In this document: positions 50,461 to 57,910 of the stretch, in pieces
Layout: each line of letters begins with the position of its first letter
Numbering within the stretch: position 1 is the stretch's first letter
DNA from: Candidatus Saccharimonadota bacterium
GTDB taxonomy: Bacteria > Patescibacteriota > Saccharimonadia > Saccharimonadales > AWTP1-31
Length of the DNA: 64,000 bases
Assembly (NCBI GenBank): GCA_052034955.1
Contig: JBPOHZ010000015.1
Coordinates: 26,998-90,997 of the forward strand
Reading direction: 5' to 3'
Program-made: the position numbers and the translations under genes
The notes under the pieces: model-generated
What the model was told of the DNA's origin: nothing
What the model saw: only the letters and a program-made list of their open reading frames with translations
Databases searched by the model: none

Positions 50461-51441
50461 CTAGTCAGATTTATTATGGAACTTCTCGTGGACCGATTTT
50501 AGGTGCGGGTCGGTGACGTGAGTGTATATCTGGGTCGTGGCAATATTGCTGTGTCCCAACATGCTTTGGACGCTCCTGATGTCGGCACCATTCATAAGTA
50601 GGTCAGTGGCGAAGCTGTGGCGTAGGGTGTGCGGCGACACATGTTTGGTTATACCAGCCAGTAGGGCAGTTTTTGCAACCATTCTTTGGACGCTGCGGGC
50701 TGTTAGCCTATGAAAGTTGCCGCTGGTGTCTATTTTTTTCTGACCACTGTAACGAACGAATAATGGCTTAACATTATCTTGCCTCTGACCCAGGTATTTA
50801 GTCAGCCAGTCTGCCGCTTCGGGGCTAATAAAGATCGGCCGGTCTTTTTGGCCCTTACCTCTGACAGTGAACTCTCGTCGTTTTAAGTTTATATGATCTC
50901 TATCTAATCCCACTAGCTCCGATACACGCAGGCCACTGCTAAAAAGAAGCTCTAGTATTGCTCTGTCTCGTAAGCCCATGATATTGCTGATATTACAGGC
51001 TGCAAGAAGCCGTTCTACCTCCTCTGGAGTTAAAAAGGTGACCTGTTTGCGAGTAGTTCTGGCCAATTCTACTTTATCGGCACTCAGGGCAGCTATATCT
51101 CGCTTGGCGCAATATTTAAGAAAGCTACGTAGGGCAATTAGGTGATAGTTCTGAGTTGTCTTTTGGAGCTCGTCGCTCGTATTGGTCCCCAAACGGTTCA
51201 GCCATAGACGCCATTTTCTTACCAGCTCCGGAGTTACGTCGGAGACTTGTATCTCTCCAGCGTAATCAGTTAAACGAGTTAGGTAGTGATCGTAGTTAGC
51301 AATGGTCTTTTGGGAACGATTCTGTTCAATCTCTAGGTACTCTAGGAAATCGGTTTTTACTTTACTAAGTAGCATAGACATTACTATATATAGGCTGCTC
51401 CTGGTAGTCGAGTAGATACGCTCATGACAAACGCCTCCCAA
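50461..51441 (-). CDS. tyrosine site-specific recombinase, XerC/XerD family
   Basis: C-terminal R...HxLRH...Y catalytic region HTLRHSFATDLL...GHSNIATTQIYTHV. Confidence 0.8.
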   Translation of the reverse strand: MGGVCHERIYSTTRSSLYIVMSMLLSKVKTDFLEYLEIEQNRSQKTIANYDHYLTRLTDYAGEIQVSDVTPELVRKWRLWLNRLGTNTSDELQKTTQNYHLIALRSFLKYCAKRDIAALSADKVELARTTRKQVTFLTPEEVERLLAACNISNIMGLRDRAILELLFSSGLRVSELVGLDRDHINLKRREFTVRGKGQKDRPIFISPEAADWLTKYLGQRQDNVKPLFVRYSGQKKIDTSGNFHRLTARSVQRMVAKTALLAGITKHVSPHTLRHSFATDLLMNGADIRSVQSMLGHSNIATTQIYTHVTDPHLKSVHEKFHNKSD

Positions 51442-51477
51442 TCTGTTAAAATAAGCTAAAAGTAAAAAAGGAAATAC

Positions 51478-51996
51478 ATGGAACGAACCCTCATTATTCT
51501 AAAACCAGATGCAGTACAAAGGGGCATAACGGGCGAGATTATTTCTCGATTTGAACGAGCTGGACTCAAGATAATCGGTACAAAAATGCTTCAACCCGAC
51601 TATGACCACTTTTACAAGCACTACGAGGGTATAAGTAAAATGGTTTCCAGGCGAGGCGAGAAGCCATTTCAGCTTACTCTAGAGATGATGCAAAGCGGAC
51701 CGGTAATCGCGTATGTCCTTGAGGGGCTAAGTGCTGTTTCGTTAGTACGTAAGATGGTTGGAGATACTGAGCCTCAAAAAGCACTCCCCGGTACAATACG
51801 TGGCGATTATGCCCATATGGGATTTGCTCATGCTGACGAGCGAGAAGTAGGGGTGCCGAATCTTATCCATGCCTCAGGTGATCCTGGCGAAGCAGAACAG
51901 GAAATTGCTCACTGGTTTAGCGAGGCTGAACTCTTTGAATACCAGACTGTTCACGAAGGCTTAACTCTAGCTACAAAACCAAAGTCGAAGAAATAA
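51478..51996 (+). CDS. ndk: nucleoside diphosphate kinase (with short insertions)
   Basis: ERTLIILKPDAVQRG, and NLIHASGD with the active-site His. Confidence 0.9.
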   Translation: MERTLIILKPDAVQRGITGEIISRFERAGLKIIGTKMLQPDYDHFYKHYEGISKMVSRRGEKPFQLTLEMMQSGPVIAYVLEGLSAVSLVRKMVGDTEPQKALPGTIRGDYAHMGFAHADEREVGVPNLIHASGDPGEAEQEIAHWFSEAELFEYQTVHEGLTLATKPKSKK

Positions 51997-53808: not shown

Positions 53809-54498
53809 TTATTGTTCAAAACTCATCCCGAAGTCGGGATTAATACCATCGGACTCTATAATTTCTTCAGGAAGTTCACGGACTTGATCAAGCATCTCAA
53901 CGTTGATATTTTTAACATAACTTCTGTCTTTTTCCTGCGAAGTAATCCTTAAATATTCATATAGATTTTCGTTTGTTAAGGGCACATACCCATCCTCAAC
54001 AAGCTGCACGGCAAGGGGGTTGTCGTTTGAAACACCCGAACTAAAGTTTGGTGATCCTGCCCACTGCAGTGTTCCGTCTTCACCTAGGAATTGCCCGAAA
54101 GTAACGTCAGCCAAGAATTTTTCACCGTCAATGGTTAGGAGGTTAAATCCATGCTGGAATGCTTCTGGGTATCTATTGCCCGAAGCCAGGGAATGTAAAT
54201 CCAGAAGTTGAACCTTCTTGCTAACTGCATCAAAACCATCACGTTGACTTTGGTCATTTAATACATATCCAAGGATATCTGGCCCTAAGTTACAATCTCC
54301 CCACATTCTGGTGGATCTGCTATCGGAATTACCTCTGGCAACCCAGCCTCTTTCAAATCGCTCGATCACATTTTCAAGTCTTGCGCTAGGTGTTGGTTCC
54401 TGTTCTAGGCCGTCAATCATTGCTCTGGCAAACATCTTGGCATGTTCTTCCGGTAATCTAGCTGTAGGGTCGGTAATATAGGACTGTTGCTCGGTCAT
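53809..54498 (-). CDS. hypothetical protein
   Basis: ORF; translationally coupled (4-nt overlap) with the upstream small membrane protein. Confidence 0.45.
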   Translation of the reverse strand: MTEQQSYITDPTARLPEEHAKMFARAMIDGLEQEPTPSARLENVIERFERGWVARGNSDSRSTRMWGDCNLGPDILGYVLNDQSQRDGFDAVSKKVQLLDLHSLASGNRYPEAFQHGFNLLTIDGEKFLADVTFGQFLGEDGTLQWAGSPNFSSGVSNDNPLAVQLVEDGYVPLTNENLYEYLRITSQEKDRSYVKNINVEMLDQVRELPEEIIESDGINPDFGMSFEQ

Positions 54499-54731
54499 TT
54501 CTGGCTACTTTTTCGGTTAGCGATAAAAGTGATCACTGTTGCTGCAGCTATCCAGTTAGGCACTATGAATAGAACTGCTTCACCGGGCGATGATGTTGTA
54601 TTCATGCCAAGTATCATTGCAAACACTACGTACCCTACAAATATTGCGTAGACAACATAGCCCGCCTTACTAGAGGGGAGGAAACTGCCACGAACCGGCC
54701 TAAACCACGTAACTTTTGTTTTTCTTGCCAT
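54495..54731 (-). CDS. small membrane protein
   Basis: Two TM helices. Confidence 0.4.
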   Translation of the reverse strand: MARKTKVTWFRPVRGSFLPSSKAGYVVYAIFVGYVVFAMILGMNTTSSPGEAVLFIVPNWIAAATVITFIANRKSSQK

Positions 54732-54891
54732 GCCTAAATTATAGCATTAGTAAATTGGCGGGCTTGGAGGCTGTTTTCTGAAAGCTTTAAAAATCTGGCT
54801 TAGGCTTTGGTTCGTGCCATACCGTCGAATGAACGTATGAGGTAGCTGCGGGGAGTGGTACTCCAACCGTGCCGTACTTTAGAGATTTGGA

Positions 54892-55407
54892 CTATACGCT
54901 CACAAGAGATTTGCTTAGTACAACGTCTTCGCCCGCACCCAGCCCGTAAAGGTCTGCTACTTCCTGGATCTCGTACCCATGATTGATTAAAAATGCGACC
55001 ATGTCGGTGTTCGTAACTTTTGTGTCGACCAGAACAGTTTCAACTCCAGGGAAGTCGGCCATTGCTTCAATCTCGGTGTTTCTAAGTAAAAAGCTTCCAA
55101 CCAAGCGGCCCTGGCCTTCTGGCACTACTGATAAGTTGCGGATCTCTAGCACATTTGATCTTTCAGGGTGCCGCTGAAAGATTGCCGCACCAACTGGTAC
55201 GCCATTGTACTGAGCGAGTAGTGCGCGCTTCACCTCATCCTCTAATTGCCCTATGGTCTTATCTATCCATTCGCTGTGAGCAGGGTAGTCAGCTTCTGTT
55301 GGGATCCAGAGTCTAGGACTACGTAGTAAGGTGACGACTTCATCGATCTCGCATGAGGATAACTCATTAGTGAATCTAAAGTCTGCCATTGAAACAAAAA
55401 ATACCAT
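54892..55407 (-). CDS. GNAT-family N-acetyltransferase-like protein (true start probably the Met at 55389)
   Basis: IRNLSVVPEGQGRLVGSFLL resembles the acetyl-CoA-binding Q/RxxGxG/A motif. The annotated first Met lies inside the upstream palindrome. Confidence 0.5.
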   Translation of the reverse strand: MVFFVSMADFRFTNELSSCEIDEVVTLLRSPRLWIPTEADYPAHSEWIDKTIGQLEDEVKRALLAQYNGVPVGAAIFQRHPERSNVLEIRNLSVVPEGQGRLVGSFLLRNTEIEAMADFPGVETVLVDTKVTNTDMVAFLINHGYEIQEVADLYGLGAGEDVVLSKSLVSV

Positions 55408-55447
55408 AAAAATGGTATTTTGTATACTTTGCGGGCCGTAACTTTAG
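55392..55447 (-). repeat. cassette-junction repeat R1 (10-4-10 palindrome plus tRNA-3'-end-like segment)
   Basis: AAAATACCAT-AAAA-ATGGTATTTT followed by TTTGCGGGCCGTAACTTTAG; near-identical to R2. Confidence 0.8.
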
Positions 55448-55920
55448 CTCACAAGCTTTTGTGTCAGTGTGACAGGGACAGGTTCTACTACATTACGCCT
55501 AATACTAAGACAAGCGGCACTTCCTACTGTAAAATTCCTGCAAATGTATGGTCTATCTTCGTATTCATCACAAAATCCGTCAGTAGTTAGGAATGCACAA
55601 TCACCATTCATCTTATATAGTCCTTGCCCTGGTCGCATTGTAAGTGCGGATTCAGCCACACCAAGCCAGAACGCTTTCTCTAAGTCATTTTCAGCATCCA
55701 CTGACAATTGCTTTATACCGTCAGTATTCTTTGACCAGCAAAAGAGCTCTTCTTCATCAGGCTCAATAGTAGGCTCAAGAACCAGTGTTTGCATAGGCGG
55801 CAGGATTCGTAGTAATTCGGCTCCAGCCTCCCTTAATCTGATTGCTTCATCAGCGTAAAGAGCAAGTCTTACGTTTGAACAGCAGGCACCCATACATCTT
55901 TCGGGATTAAACTCAGTCAT
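55444..55920 (-). CDS. YkgJ/UPF0153-like Cys-cluster protein (putative Zn/Fe-binding)
   Basis: N-terminal C-x-x-x-CC (CMGACC) plus a distal DCAFL...GFC...YIC cysteine set. Confidence 0.5.
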   Translation of the reverse strand: MTEFNPERCMGACCSNVRLALYADEAIRLREAGAELLRILPPMQTLVLEPTIEPDEEELFCWSKNTDGIKQLSVDAENDLEKAFWLGVAESALTMRPGQGLYKMNGDCAFLTTDGFCDEYEDRPYICRNFTVGSAACLSIRRNVVEPVPVTLTQKLVS

Positions 55921-55987
55921 AAAGCAAAAAATACCATAAAAATGGTATTTTGTCTACTTTGCGGGCCGTAACTTTAGTTATCTGGAA
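55921..55987 (-). repeat. cassette-junction repeat R2
   Basis: Differs from R1 at only about 3 positions over approximately 55 bp. Confidence 0.8.
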
Positions 55988-55993
55988 CAATTT

Positions 55994-56512
55994 TTATTGC
56001 TCGGCAGGTGTTGCCGAGAGCTGTTGCATGAGCTCTACCGTTGCGGCGAGTTCAGGGGTGGGACCAGCGATAGGTTTTGTTACATAGTGGGTTTCTGCGA
56101 AGAAACCGCTTTCTGTCTCTGTATCTGGCTGAGTAGGTAAGGATTCTGGGTTGATTGATAGAGAAGTTTTACCCTCATAAGTATAGCTATGGATTACACC
56201 AGGAGGCACGACTCCATGGAGAAAAGTAACAGGTGCAGGAGATCGTCTAAAAGCAATGCCCCTAAAGTAGCGTGGGAGAGCGCCAGAGTTTATCGCATCA
56301 GTTGCCGCTTCGCTTATTTCGTCGGGCGTTAGACCTCTTTGCTCAGCTTCTGTTGCAAAATTGTTCATTTGTTGTCGTGCTTCATCTAGAAGAGAGTAGG
56401 CCGTATTATGAAGAGTGGGTGTATATTCAGTTGGTGAATTAGGCTTAGCATCCAACGGTTCTGCTATTGGTTCGGTAGCAGGTGCGGGGTTTCTATTCTT
56501 TCGAAGGAACAT
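55994..56512 (-). CDS. hypothetical protein
   Basis: ORF; the start codon is immediately preceded by R3. Confidence 0.45.
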   Translation of the reverse strand: MFLRKNRNPAPATEPIAEPLDAKPNSPTEYTPTLHNTAYSLLDEARQQMNNFATEAEQRGLTPDEISEAATDAINSGALPRYFRGIAFRRSPAPVTFLHGVVPPGVIHSYTYEGKTSLSINPESLPTQPDTETESGFFAETHYVTKPIAGPTPELAATVELMQQLSATPAEQ

Positions 56513-56566
56513 AAAAAAATATTACCATAAAAATAGTATTTTGTCTAGTGGCGGGCCCGACCGGAT
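56513..56566 (-). repeat. cassette-junction repeat R3, containing an exact 18-nt copy of the tRNA-Asp 3' end
   Basis: Degenerate palindrome ATTACCAT-AAAA-ATAGTAT followed by TGGCGGGCCCGACCGGAT (56549-56566), which is identical to 56719-56736. Confidence 0.8.
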
Positions 56567-56718
56567 AGCCACACATCTATGCCAGTGCTCGGAATAAATT
56601 CCTGCGCTCTGGCTTGATGACCGAACTGGCGATCTCATTCACTTCGTTCATGGATCGCCTCGTTTGTATCGTTGGGCAGCTATGAAAAAGAGCCATCACA
56701 TGGATGACTCATTTTCAC

Positions 56719-56796
56719 TGGCGGGCCCGACCGGATTCGAACCGGCGATCTCCTCCGTGACAGGGAGGCGTGTTAGGCCAGCTACACCACGGGCCC
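56719..56796 (-). tRNA. tRNA-Asp (anticodon GUC)
   Basis: Cloverleaf: acceptor GGGCCCG/CGGGCCC, anticodon loop CUGUCAC (identical to E. coli tRNA-Asp), T-loop TTCGAAT, encoded CCA. Confidence 0.85.
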
Positions 56797-56920
56797 GCAT
56801 CGATACTTAAAAGTAACAGATGATAGTCTAACAATTTAAGGTGTAAATAGCAAGAAATATAATTCTTAAATATTACTTAAATAATTGATTATATTGCTAT
56901 AGGTACATCATAATTTAACT

Positions 56921-57397
56921 ATGGTCACACTCAGAAAACTATTTCCTAACTGCTTGGTTTGTGATGCGATGTTACCCAGAAGGAGCTACAAGTATTGTTC
57001 AAATAAGTGTCAAGCAGACTTTCAGTACGAAAAATACATACATGATTGGAAGTGTGGCAAGGTATCAGGCCTGCAAGCAAGGTTGGGAATAGTCTCTCGG
57101 CATGTAAAACGTTATTTAAGGAGTAAATACCATAACAGATGTTGCATTTGTGGGTGGGCTGAGGTTAATATTGTTACACGTACTGTACCGCTGGTAGCAG
57201 ATCATATTGACGGTAATTGGCAAAACAACAAAGAAGCAAATCTAAGGCTTATTTGCCCTAATTGTGACTCGCTTTCGGCAACTTATGCGGCACTTAACAG
57301 GGGAAAGGGTAGAATAGGTCGAAGGGTTAGCAACAGGGTTAATGTTGCAAGAAGTAATGCAAACAAAGTTGCCGGGGTAACTCAGTTGGTAGAGTAG
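56921..57397 (+). CDS. HNH endonuclease-family protein
   Basis: Cys-rich N-terminus and the HNH core VADHIDGNWQNN...LICPNCD. The last approximately 9 codons read into the tRNA-Thr gene. Confidence 0.6.
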   Translation: MVTLRKLFPNCLVCDAMLPRRSYKYCSNKCQADFQYEKYIHDWKCGKVSGLQARLGIVSRHVKRYLRSKYHNRCCICGWAEVNIVTRTVPLVADHIDGNWQNNKEANLRLICPNCDSLSATYAALNRGKGRIGRRVSNRVNVARSNANKVAGVTQLVE

Positions 57398-57532: not shown

Positions 57533-57553
57533 AATAGGCTATAATAAATACAA

Positions 57554-57910
57554 ATGCAATTATCACAGAAATACTTACATGACCGAGTTATTCTATTACT
57601 TCTTAGTTTCAATACATTTCTAACATTAATTGGTTCTGTACTTATCTTTTTACAACTTGGTAGTGGCCAGAGTGGCAGGGTGATTGTAGCTTATCGTCCT
57701 AACTTAGGGATTAACTCCTATACACCCGGAAAGTCATCTGATTTCTTGGCATTTGCGTTGTTTCTATTTGTAACATTGGGATTAAACATCGCTTTAAGTG
57801 CACGAATCTACAGCAAGCACCGAAGTTATGCCCTCACAGTTCTCGGACTGGGTTCCTTGGTGGCAGTCGTTACCATTATTGTCAGTAATGCACTTCTGAT
57901 CTTAGGATAA
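57554..57910 (+). CDS. small membrane protein
   Basis: Three TM helices; its stop lies 2 nt before the GT2 start. Confidence 0.45.
   Translation: MQLSQKYLHDRVILLLLSFNTFLTLIGSVLIFLQLGSGQSGRVIVAYRPNLGINSYTPGKSSDFLAFALFLFVTLGLNIALSARIYSKHRSYALTVLGLGSLVAVVTIIVSNALLILG

Follow-up and report, generated by a model that had tools for sequence, protein, structure and literature searches.

Within a 64,000-nucleotide stretch from a Candidatus Saccharimonadota bacterium (contig JBPOHZ010000015.1; 'the window' hereafter, that is, the whole 64-kb stretch of DNA that was analysed), a tRNA-Asp gene is followed, in its own direction, by a 152-bp non-coding stretch and then by five small genes, all on the minus strand. 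A sequence-only reading of this DNA had proposed that three of these genes share a repeat abutting their start codons, and a repeat search confirms this: three direct repeats of ~56 bp (R1, 55392-55447; R2, 55922-55977; R3, 56513-56568), spaced 530 bp and 591 bp apart, each end at the ATG of a minus-strand open reading frame (ORF), encoding a GNAT acetyltransferase, a YkgJ-like protein and a 172-aa orphan protein, respectively. Identity to R1 amounts to 96% for R2 and 70% for R3. The 23-nt palindromic core of the repeats occurs at only three sites in the window, and not one of 100 dinucleotide shuffles gave a match to it. Each repeat consists of the tail of the upstream unit (35 bp, resembling the 3' half of a tRNA and ending in CCCGCCA) and the head of the downstream gene. 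Read in the direction of the tRNA, the features of the locus are the following.

56719-56796, minus strand: tRNA-Asp (GTC), identified with ARAGORN (Rfam tRNA, 63.7 bits); its 3' end reads ...GGTCGGGCCCGCCA.
56567-56718, minus strand: structured module devoid of an ORF, delineated by folding, terminator scan and covariation.
56549-56566, minus strand: module tail, 18 nt that repeat the tRNA-Asp 3' end exactly (ATCCGGTCGGGCCCGCCA), from the repeat search.
56513-56548, minus strand: head R3, with −35 box TAGACA (56542-56547), 17-nt spacer and TG-extended −10 box TAATAT (56519-56524), the latter 7 nt from the ATG at 56510-56512.
55994-56512, minus strand: ORF of cassette 1, the 172-aa orphan protein.
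55959-55993, minus strand: type-1 tail of cassette 1 (AAATTGTTCCAGATAACTAAAGTTACGGCCCGCAA), which fits the 35-nt tail family, begins immediately after the TAA stop codon and has CCA changed to CAA.
55921-55958, minus strand: head R2, with −35 box TAGACA (55951-55956), palindromic 17-nt spacer and TG-extended −10 box TATTTT (55928-55933); ATG at 55918-55920.
55444-55920, minus strand: ORF of cassette 2, a CxxCxxCC (YkgJ-like) protein of 158 aa (Pfam PF03692).
55429-55449, minus strand: truncated type-1 tail of cassette 2 (GCTAAAGTTACGGCCCGCAA), from the repeat search and comparison with locus L161.
55390-55428, minus strand: head R1, with −35 box TATACA (55421-55426), palindromic spacer and −10 box TATTTT (55398-55403); ATG at 55387-55389.
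54892-55389, minus strand: ORF of cassette 3, a GNAT acetyltransferase of 165 aa (Pfam PF00583).
54867-54884, minus strand: degenerate, truncated tail remnant of cassette 3 (CTCTAAAGTACGGCACGG), recognised by comparison with the tail family.
54756-54788, minus strand: 'ghost' tail (AAAGCTTTCAGAAAACAGCCTCCAAGCCCGCCA), from sequence and repeat search; compare the tail ...CCAGACCTCCAAGGCCACGGCCCGCCA of locus L057.
54732-54755, minus strand: head 4, recognised from its sequence, with −10 box TATAAT (54738-54743) and 6 nt to the ATG at 54729-54731.
53809-54731, minus strand: last unit, with ORFs for a 78-aa membrane protein (54495-54731) and an overlapping 229-aa protein (53809-54498).

The last unit stops 20 nt short of a convergent PpiC gene, at which the variable region ends, and the base composition of the region is in no way unusual. 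This layout supports the earlier description of a stack that runs in one direction from the 3' end of tRNA-Asp and whose units mostly hold a single gene. Each tail starts at the upstream ORF's stop codon and closes with (G)GNCCGCCA, and each head has the makeup of a sigma-70 promoter, that is, a −35 box (TAGACA or TATACA), a 17-nt spacer, a TG-extended −10 box (TGGTATTTT or TGGTAATAT) and 6-8 nt leading to the ATG; the A/T-rich palindrome of the repeats coincides with the spacer and the extended −10 box. R2 and R3 pass a promoter scan, and R1 scores 8/12, just under the threshold. Because the −10 box lies 6-8 nt before the ATG, the mRNAs of the units are probably leaderless. The same spacing is encountered at the 78-aa gene, at an HNH gene (56921) and at the gene at 57554, and its being shared by several unrelated genes suggests that leaderless mRNAs are usual in this genome. 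TATAAT-like boxes located 6-8 nt before the ATG of unrelated genes, without a Shine-Dalgarno sequence, are seen at 57540-57556, 56905-56923 and 54729-54745.

Most tails in the window are damaged: CCA is changed to CAA in R1 and R2, and the GNAT tail is shortened. Compared with its counterpart in L161, the tail of cassette 2 lacks 19 nt, and from a CTAAA microhomology onward it matches the end of the R2 tail exactly. In the 160-bp gap that follows the GNAT gene and precedes the 78-aa gene, a single degraded repeat copy had been suspected at about 54745-54885; it is real, but comprises two separate remnants, namely the GNAT tail (CTCTAAAGTACGGCACGG, 54867-54884) and a degenerate tail (...CCTCCAAGCCCGCCA, 54756-54788), after which come a TATAAT promoter and the start codon (ATG) of the 78-aa gene. 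The latter tail is apparently the sole remnant of a unit lost between cassettes 3 and 4.

The window was compared with 165 Saccharibacteria loci (named L001 etc.). An nhmmer profile, seeded with R1, R2 and the junction of L002 and iterated over these loci, yields 72 tail-head junctions other than the tRNA itself, distributed over 30 of the 165 loci. All junctions of a given locus share the same strand (median spacing, 657 bp), and most heads lead at a fixed offset to an ATG and an ORF (median 165 aa). The first junction of an array is the genuine tRNA-Asp 3' end directly followed by a head; later junctions carry a tail of type 1 (AAATAGTTCCAGACCTCTTCCGCCACGGCCCGCCA) or type 2 (AAAGTTCGGAAATCCGACTCGATGCCCCGCCA), both of which align to AGATCGCCGGTTCGAATCCGGTCGGGCCCGCCA of the tRNA. 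Hence R1 and R2 do not contain stepwise-diverged copies of tRNA-Asp, as had been thought, but belong to a separate, conserved 35-bp tail family present in many genomes. Sequence derived from the tRNA 3' end is indeed part of the junction at R3, where TGGCGGGCCCGACCGGAT (56549-56566), 170 bp downstream of the tRNA, is identical to the tRNA-Asp 3' end (56719-56736); judged by its sequence, this copy would amount to a second, intact left half of an attachment site. The same arrangement is found in L005, L011, L079, L092 and others.

The closest relatives share the order tRNA-Arg, bPH, PpiC, variable region, tRNA-Asp, tRNA-Thr, tRNA-Gly, GT, with a variable region of 1-7 kb, and lack all five window genes at their syntenic loci. 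L002 exhibits the same architecture with wholly different genes: the tRNA, a terminator, a module of ~150 nt, a degenerate tRNA end with promoter, and an R1/R2-like junction. Such differences in gene content between conserved flanks favour the view, put forward in the earlier reading, that the genes are cassettes.

Three cassettes recur in different arrays with other neighbours, and their homology starts and stops at the CCA boundaries. The YkgJ homologue of L161 (82% aa identity) resides in another array with different neighbours on both sides, and the DNA homology extends from CCCGC(C/A)A through head and ORF and ends in the tail. A GNAT homologue in L042 (3035-3532; 54% identical) is a cassette between junctions whose head is nearly identical to the 3' part of head R1. 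Likewise, a two-gene RelB-type unit directly follows the tRNA in L045, and in L068 it comes after a type-2 tail; each copy is closed by a type-1 tail, and their homology spans from CCA to the CCA of the tail and is gone on both outer sides. Since the YkgJ, GNAT and RelB-type units recur with these bounds, a unit can be taken to comprise head, ORF(s) and tail, delimited by CCA boxes. Homologues of the genes of the last unit also occur in other arrays (L049, 9147-9365; L066, 188-781, the latter between junctions). The cargo is mixed and mostly unannotated, and includes GNAT, HAD, RelB, WhiB and HD proteins, among others. The 172-aa orphan matches neither Pfam nor NCBIfam and, among 5.8 billion proteins, matches only itself; no homology was detected between cassette 1 and the first cassette of L169, which shares an R3-like head. 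No integrases were found inside the arrays of L004, L016 and L042.

The tRNA-Asp 3' end appears to be the anchor (attB) of the array: in relatives, both cassettes and genes for large serine recombinases (LSRs) adjoin this same end. LSR genes (Pfam Resolvase, Recombinase and Zn_ribbon_recom) lie there on the strand opposite to the tRNA in L070, L146, L023, L129, L015 and L172-174, with an ORF extending 38-41 nt into tRNA-Asp, and a second LSR family, ~25% identical to the first, is present in L175 (the same contig as L161). No integrase is found at the tRNA-proximal end within the 64-kb window, unlike in the relatives L070, L146, L023, L129, L015 and L172-175. The LSR elements measure 5-7 kb, their distal end is a tail (type 1 in L070, L023 and L015; type 2 in L161), and the older array resumes beyond it. 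Truncated LSR remnants, retaining only the C-terminal part, are still joined to tRNA-Asp in L058 (2463-3242) and L060 (5008-5295), so that LSR elements evidently decay in place. Cargo of the elements (L023, 5460-7067; L070, 1020-1919) includes an OLD/AbiEii-type ATPase-nuclease, which may serve in phage defence, and a Ser/Thr protein kinase.

Two forms exist among contigs that come from different samples and code for one and the same GT protein, with tRNA, module and cassettes in L169/L170, and the tRNA directly followed by an LSR element in L172-174. Identity between these forms is 99.3-99.97% as far as the CCA (plus 1-2 nt), beyond which they are unrelated. This is a direct presence/absence polymorphism of a whole LSR element at the tRNA-Asp site, and lies in a relative with 72% GT identity to the window. 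Scanning of viral contigs gave no match for the type-1 tail pattern, and four matches for a pattern of CCA plus P' arm, all of them chance matches in unrelated GC-rich contigs.

The tails themselves also point to LSRs. All 31 distinct type-1 tails are exactly 35 nt long and, on the reverse strand and in the frame of the LSR ORF, read W-R-A-V-A-x-E-V-W-N-Y, with entropies of 6.8, 4.5 and 8.5 at codon positions 1, 2 and 3; type-2 tails read W-R-G-I-E-S-D-F-R-T. On the reverse strand the tails thus look like the C-terminal coding end of an LSR. Counted from the G of GTTC to the last A of CCA, the distance amounts to 24 nt for the tRNA, as compared with 30 nt for tails of type 1 and 29 nt for those of type 2. 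In serine integrase sites, the binding motif of the zinc-ribbon domain (ZD) is shifted 5 bp outward in attP relative to attB (PMC3783163), and the 5-6 bp shift of GTTC in the tails would match this published shift if GTTC is the ZD motif. The tails are best read as attR scars, because the P arm would stay at the far end after integration.

Taken together, we consider it likely that 53809-56718 represents an accretion array at the 3' end of tRNA-Asp, which would serve as attB for LSR integrative elements in Saccharibacteria. In the free circular element, the LSR ORF would run through the P' arm and the crossover into the P arm, so that the tail would be both the P arm of attP and the 3' coding end of the LSR gene on the other strand, and integration would leave the P arm at the far end as an attR scar. 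The crossover is expected inside GGGCCCGCCA, and recombination joining units at, or slightly inside, the CCCGCCA box would explain why every junction reads as a tail ending in CCA followed by a head. In the tRNA direction each unit consists of head, ORF(s) and tail, and the palindromic spacer of the head, together with its T-run, may double as a weak terminator for the unit upstream. In this order, the window holds tRNA-Asp, the structured module with its perfect tRNA-3'-end tail, three single-gene units, the ghost tail and the two-gene unit. The array looks largely like a fossil record of past insertions, given that most of its tails carry mutations or truncations and that the 64 kb encode no LSR; it presumably still works as a set of independently expressed accessory genes. 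Of the earlier proposal of serial integration by tyrosine or serine recombinases, site-specific recombination is thus retained, with a serine recombinase as the best candidate from the relatives, and the tyrosine (Xer-like) option is disfavoured.

We infer that an LSR was also the enzyme that moved the single-gene units, and two routes are possible. Either these units are non-autonomous mini-elements mobilised in trans, or an LSR element excises via a more distal attR, takes neighbouring units along and deposits them in a new genome after a later, precise excision. Decayed distal ends of L070-type LSR elements were also considered as a source of the cassettes; the genes of such elements lie on the strand opposite to the cassettes, and hence the single-gene units are not simply decayed element ends.

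Several points weigh against this interpretation. Neither route for the single-gene units has direct support, and serine integrases normally pair only attP with attB, or attL with attR. The heads are unlike the P' arms of both LSR families (CCA followed by ATTCGGATT... and by AACCGTACG..., respectively), so that a canonical attP composed of tail and head is not demonstrated. The coding-like pattern of the tails could instead reflect constraint on a protein-binding site. R1 and R2 are 96% identical over tail and head while flanking unrelated genes, which requires gene conversion or local duplication in addition to site-specific recombination; gene conversion is probably contributed by homologous recombination in the naturally competent Saccharibacteria. 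The window encodes no recombinase besides an Xer-like enzyme. Finally, no single-gene unit was found to have been gained or lost between strains, and the polymorphism seen concerns a whole LSR element only. An all-versus-all comparison of loci for cassette gain or loss among near-identical contigs returned only duplicates and one possible chimera, and candidate cassette differences among L161, L162 and L163 turned out to be gene-calling artefacts in collinear contigs. In the metagenome contig L081, positions 1-746, up to tRNA-Asp, match L004 (8570-9315) at 100% identity, and the remainder matches L001 at 99.8%, L001 and L004 being distinct genomes at species level; L081 thus reflects either chimeric assembly or a recombination joint located at the tRNA. 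The species of the window is represented by a single genome in databases; its cassette proteins occur on one contig only and exact look-ups of them returned no record. A metagenome scan for the species found nothing closer than 83%, and the GT gene at 57913-59511 matches only Saccharibacteria metagenome-assembled genomes, at ≤83% identity.

Alternatively, the cassettes might be exchanged by a tyrosine recombinase, either the Xer-like enzyme (50464-51498) or another tyrosine integrase, swapping strands within the 7-bp CCCGCCA and using the head palindrome as binding site, in a fashion akin to Xer-exploiting elements and pdif. A 6-7-bp block identical in tRNA and tails would suit the overlap region of such an enzyme, the palindrome has 9-10-bp arms about a 4-6-bp centre, and in many relatives the Xer-like gene shows synteny with the locus, while its product gives sub-threshold matches to integron-integrase models. 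However, this gene is also present in loci without arrays and is matched best by XerC/XerD models, and hence looks like a housekeeping dimer-resolution enzyme; the recombinases physically joined to the site in relatives are serine, not tyrosine, recombinases; and the tails read as LSR C-termini. The palindrome, moreover, is not kept at the first junction of L002, at the fourth head of the window or in L045. A dif-like 28-bp site (11-6-11, as in IMEX and pdif) was not found at the unit bounds; the head palindrome (10-4-10 or 8-5-8) varies in sequence, is missing from several heads, and lies inside the promoter rather than at the unit boundary. We thus regard a tyrosine recombinase as quite unlikely. 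The XerC/XerD-like gene itself (50464-51498, minus strand), which is probably a housekeeping gene, immediately precedes tRNA-Arg(CCT) at a distance of ~5 kb from the tRNA-Asp hotspot, and its position is kept in more than 20 related loci.

The units could alternatively have been swapped by RecA after transformation, with the junctions (~75 bp) acting as portable homology arms and a site-specific step having generated only the first tails. Saccharibacteria are, according to PMC10633639, naturally competent and integrate DNA through homologous recombination, which favours this explanation, as do junctions that are more alike within than between genomes (R1/R2, and the set in L042), as expected from gene conversion, and the YkgJ tail of the window, seemingly overwritten by an R2-like tail at the CTAAA microhomology. 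Yet the unit bounds are sharp and always at the CCA box, where homologous exchange would scatter them, the arms are short (35-40 bp each) and diverge between genomes, and neither the fixed 35-nt length of the tails nor the polarity on one strand would be explained, which makes this explanation unlikely. If, lastly, nothing had moved and the repeats were locally duplicated ordinary promoters, with the GC box a chance or regulatory motif, one would expect promoter-like heads and the near-identity of R1 and R2, both of which are found; and for a species represented once in databases, no polymorphism can be shown. Variable gene content between conserved flanks, identical cassettes with different neighbours and LSR elements that share the tails and are polymorphic at the same base nevertheless contradict immobility already, and dozens of genomes contain tails of this one family, without exception downstream of tRNA-Asp and on a single strand. 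This last explanation is therefore very improbable indeed, and accretion of LSR elements at tRNA-Asp is preferred.

Among known systems, the tycheposon islands of Prochlorococcus, which arise by tandem accretion of integrative elements at tRNA genes (bioRxiv 10.1101/2020.12.28.424599), come closest. There as here, (i) a full tRNA is followed by partial tRNA copies separating successive insertions, (ii) newcomers displace older units away from the tRNA, (iii) tyrosine or large serine recombinases are involved and flexible genes reside between conserved flanks, and (iv) the genomes are streamlined, with few other mobile elements. In contrast to tycheposons, the units described here mostly contain one gene (median ORF 165 aa) with its own predicted leaderless promoter and carry neither integrase nor replication module, the separators are not tRNA copies but a fixed 35-bp attP-arm sequence with ~7-9 nt in common with the tRNA, and the same junction architecture is maintained across a whole phylum-level lineage. 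One-gene units, fixed attP-arm scars and built-in leaderless promoters are thus what differs from tycheposons, and literature searches retrieved no account of this arrangement in Saccharibacteria or Patescibacteria.

A likeness to integrons, which the sequence-only reading had also raised, is likewise apparent. In integrons and CALINs (clusters of attC sites without an integrase), genes that are mostly single and mostly orphans, toxin-antitoxin pairs among them, likewise form one-directional arrays; their units are bounded by a conserved recombination-site remnant, the integrase need not adjoin the array, and junctions are homogenised within a genome, as for the VCRs of Vibrio. The machinery is different, however. 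The array is anchored at a tRNA 3' end and associated with serine recombinases, without IntI tyrosine integrase or attI, and each cassette has its own −35/−10 promoter instead of a common Pc. No integron integrase is encoded in the window: the Xer-like protein, 5 kb away beyond tRNA-Arg, scores 141 bits against the TIGR02249 cut-off of 265. Sites of the attC type are imperfect palindromes of 57-141 nt that fold as single strands and contain R''/L''-L'/R' boxes; folding of both DNA strands of R1-R3 gave only a 10-bp A/T hairpin and no pairing between tail and head. With no IntI, no attC and a promoter for each unit, the array is not an integron. Serine integrase systems such as A118, Bxb1 and phiC31 (PMC3783163) share with the tRNA-Asp locus a recombinase gene beside the att site, short sites, stable scars and, if GTTC is the ZD motif, an outward shift of that motif by ~5 bp in attP relative to attB, but insert one prophage at a time and do not build a stack of attR scars holding single genes; here, two unrelated LSR families (~25% identity) target one tRNA, with ORFs reading into it. 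Phage morons, too, are autonomous one-gene units with their own promoter and terminator placed between other genes, but have no conserved recombination-site bounds and are not stacked at a tRNA.

The ORF-less module between tRNA-Asp and R3 deserves separate consideration. It holds the intrinsic terminator of the tRNA (stem at 56690-56710 and T-run), the hairpin GGCGATC...GATCGCC and a covarying hairpin (GCCAG..GGAA TTTA TTCC..CTGGC), as well as the 5' strand of a T-stem plus TTCG; its fold has a z-score of −3.15. The family was detected in more than 30 loci; its members follow tRNA-Asp (15 copies), tRNA-Val(GAC) (11), tRNA-Thr(CGT) (3) and tRNA-Pro(GGG) (1), and also occur within arrays, directly after a tail. 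The order of parts is terminator, inverted copy of the T-arm, T-stem 5' strand plus TTCG, hairpin insert of 60-75 nt, (T)ATCC and the 3' end of the cognate tRNA; the module always closes with a copy of the 3' end of the tRNA that it follows. In an alignment of 21 sequences, compensatory changes are present in 14 of 15 proposed pairs, and 89% of cells are paired, compared with 28-38% when the partners are slid; 0 of 500 shuffles attained the 89%. Rfam searches of the junctions, of 56549-56718 in the window and of the canonical copy in L092 returned tRNAs only and no module family. The module might act as a spare attB half-site or as an insulator, or else be an RNA.

Further modules of ~150-170 nt are located at L092 9162-9311, L079 6205-6036, L022 2528-2668, L034 9379-9252 and L097 18468-18645. 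In L005 (8421-8688), two different variants stand in tandem after tRNA-Asp. In L052 (7820-8060), the direct repeat around the module reaches past the tRNA 3' end into the terminator, with CCGCCAAGAAAATGGACTCATCGAA occurring twice, and the duplicated block is for this reason longer than that of the window. On the other side of tRNA-Asp, between it and tRNA-Thr, lies a gene for an HNH/zinc-ribbon protein of 158 aa (56921-57397, plus strand), whose ORF extends 27 nt inside tRNA-Thr. Among the relatives it is present in L005 and L016 only, the others having ~110 bp at this position, and it looks like a separately gained homing-type endonuclease.

It is tempting to speculate, if with considerable doubt, that Saccharibacteria possess an integron-like capture platform, in which units of promoter, ORF and 35-bp tail are shuffled among tRNA-Asp arrays by LSRs acting in trans, and which is complemented by a tRNA-agnostic module. 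One possible route would be the pairing of attL with any of several stacked attR scars, and the module, by copying the 3' end of its tRNA (Asp, Val, Thr or Pro), might offer a spare landing site or a tRNA-mimic RNA.

To our knowledge, Saccharibacteria and other Patescibacteria have tiny genomes with few recognised mobile elements, and how they acquire accessory genes is poorly understood. A phylum-wide hotspot with simple bounds (the CCA of tRNA-Asp, 35-bp tails and leaderless promoters) would enable one to catalogue their flexible gene pool from metagenomes, and the ORF-less module adds an uncatalogued structured element tied to four different tRNAs. Serine integrases targeting tRNA-Asp provide a candidate mechanism that is testable in the now genetically tractable Saccharibacteria. 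Finally, the arrays may turn out to be a source of tools themselves, that is, of natural landing pads and compact expression cassettes for the engineering of Saccharibacteria.

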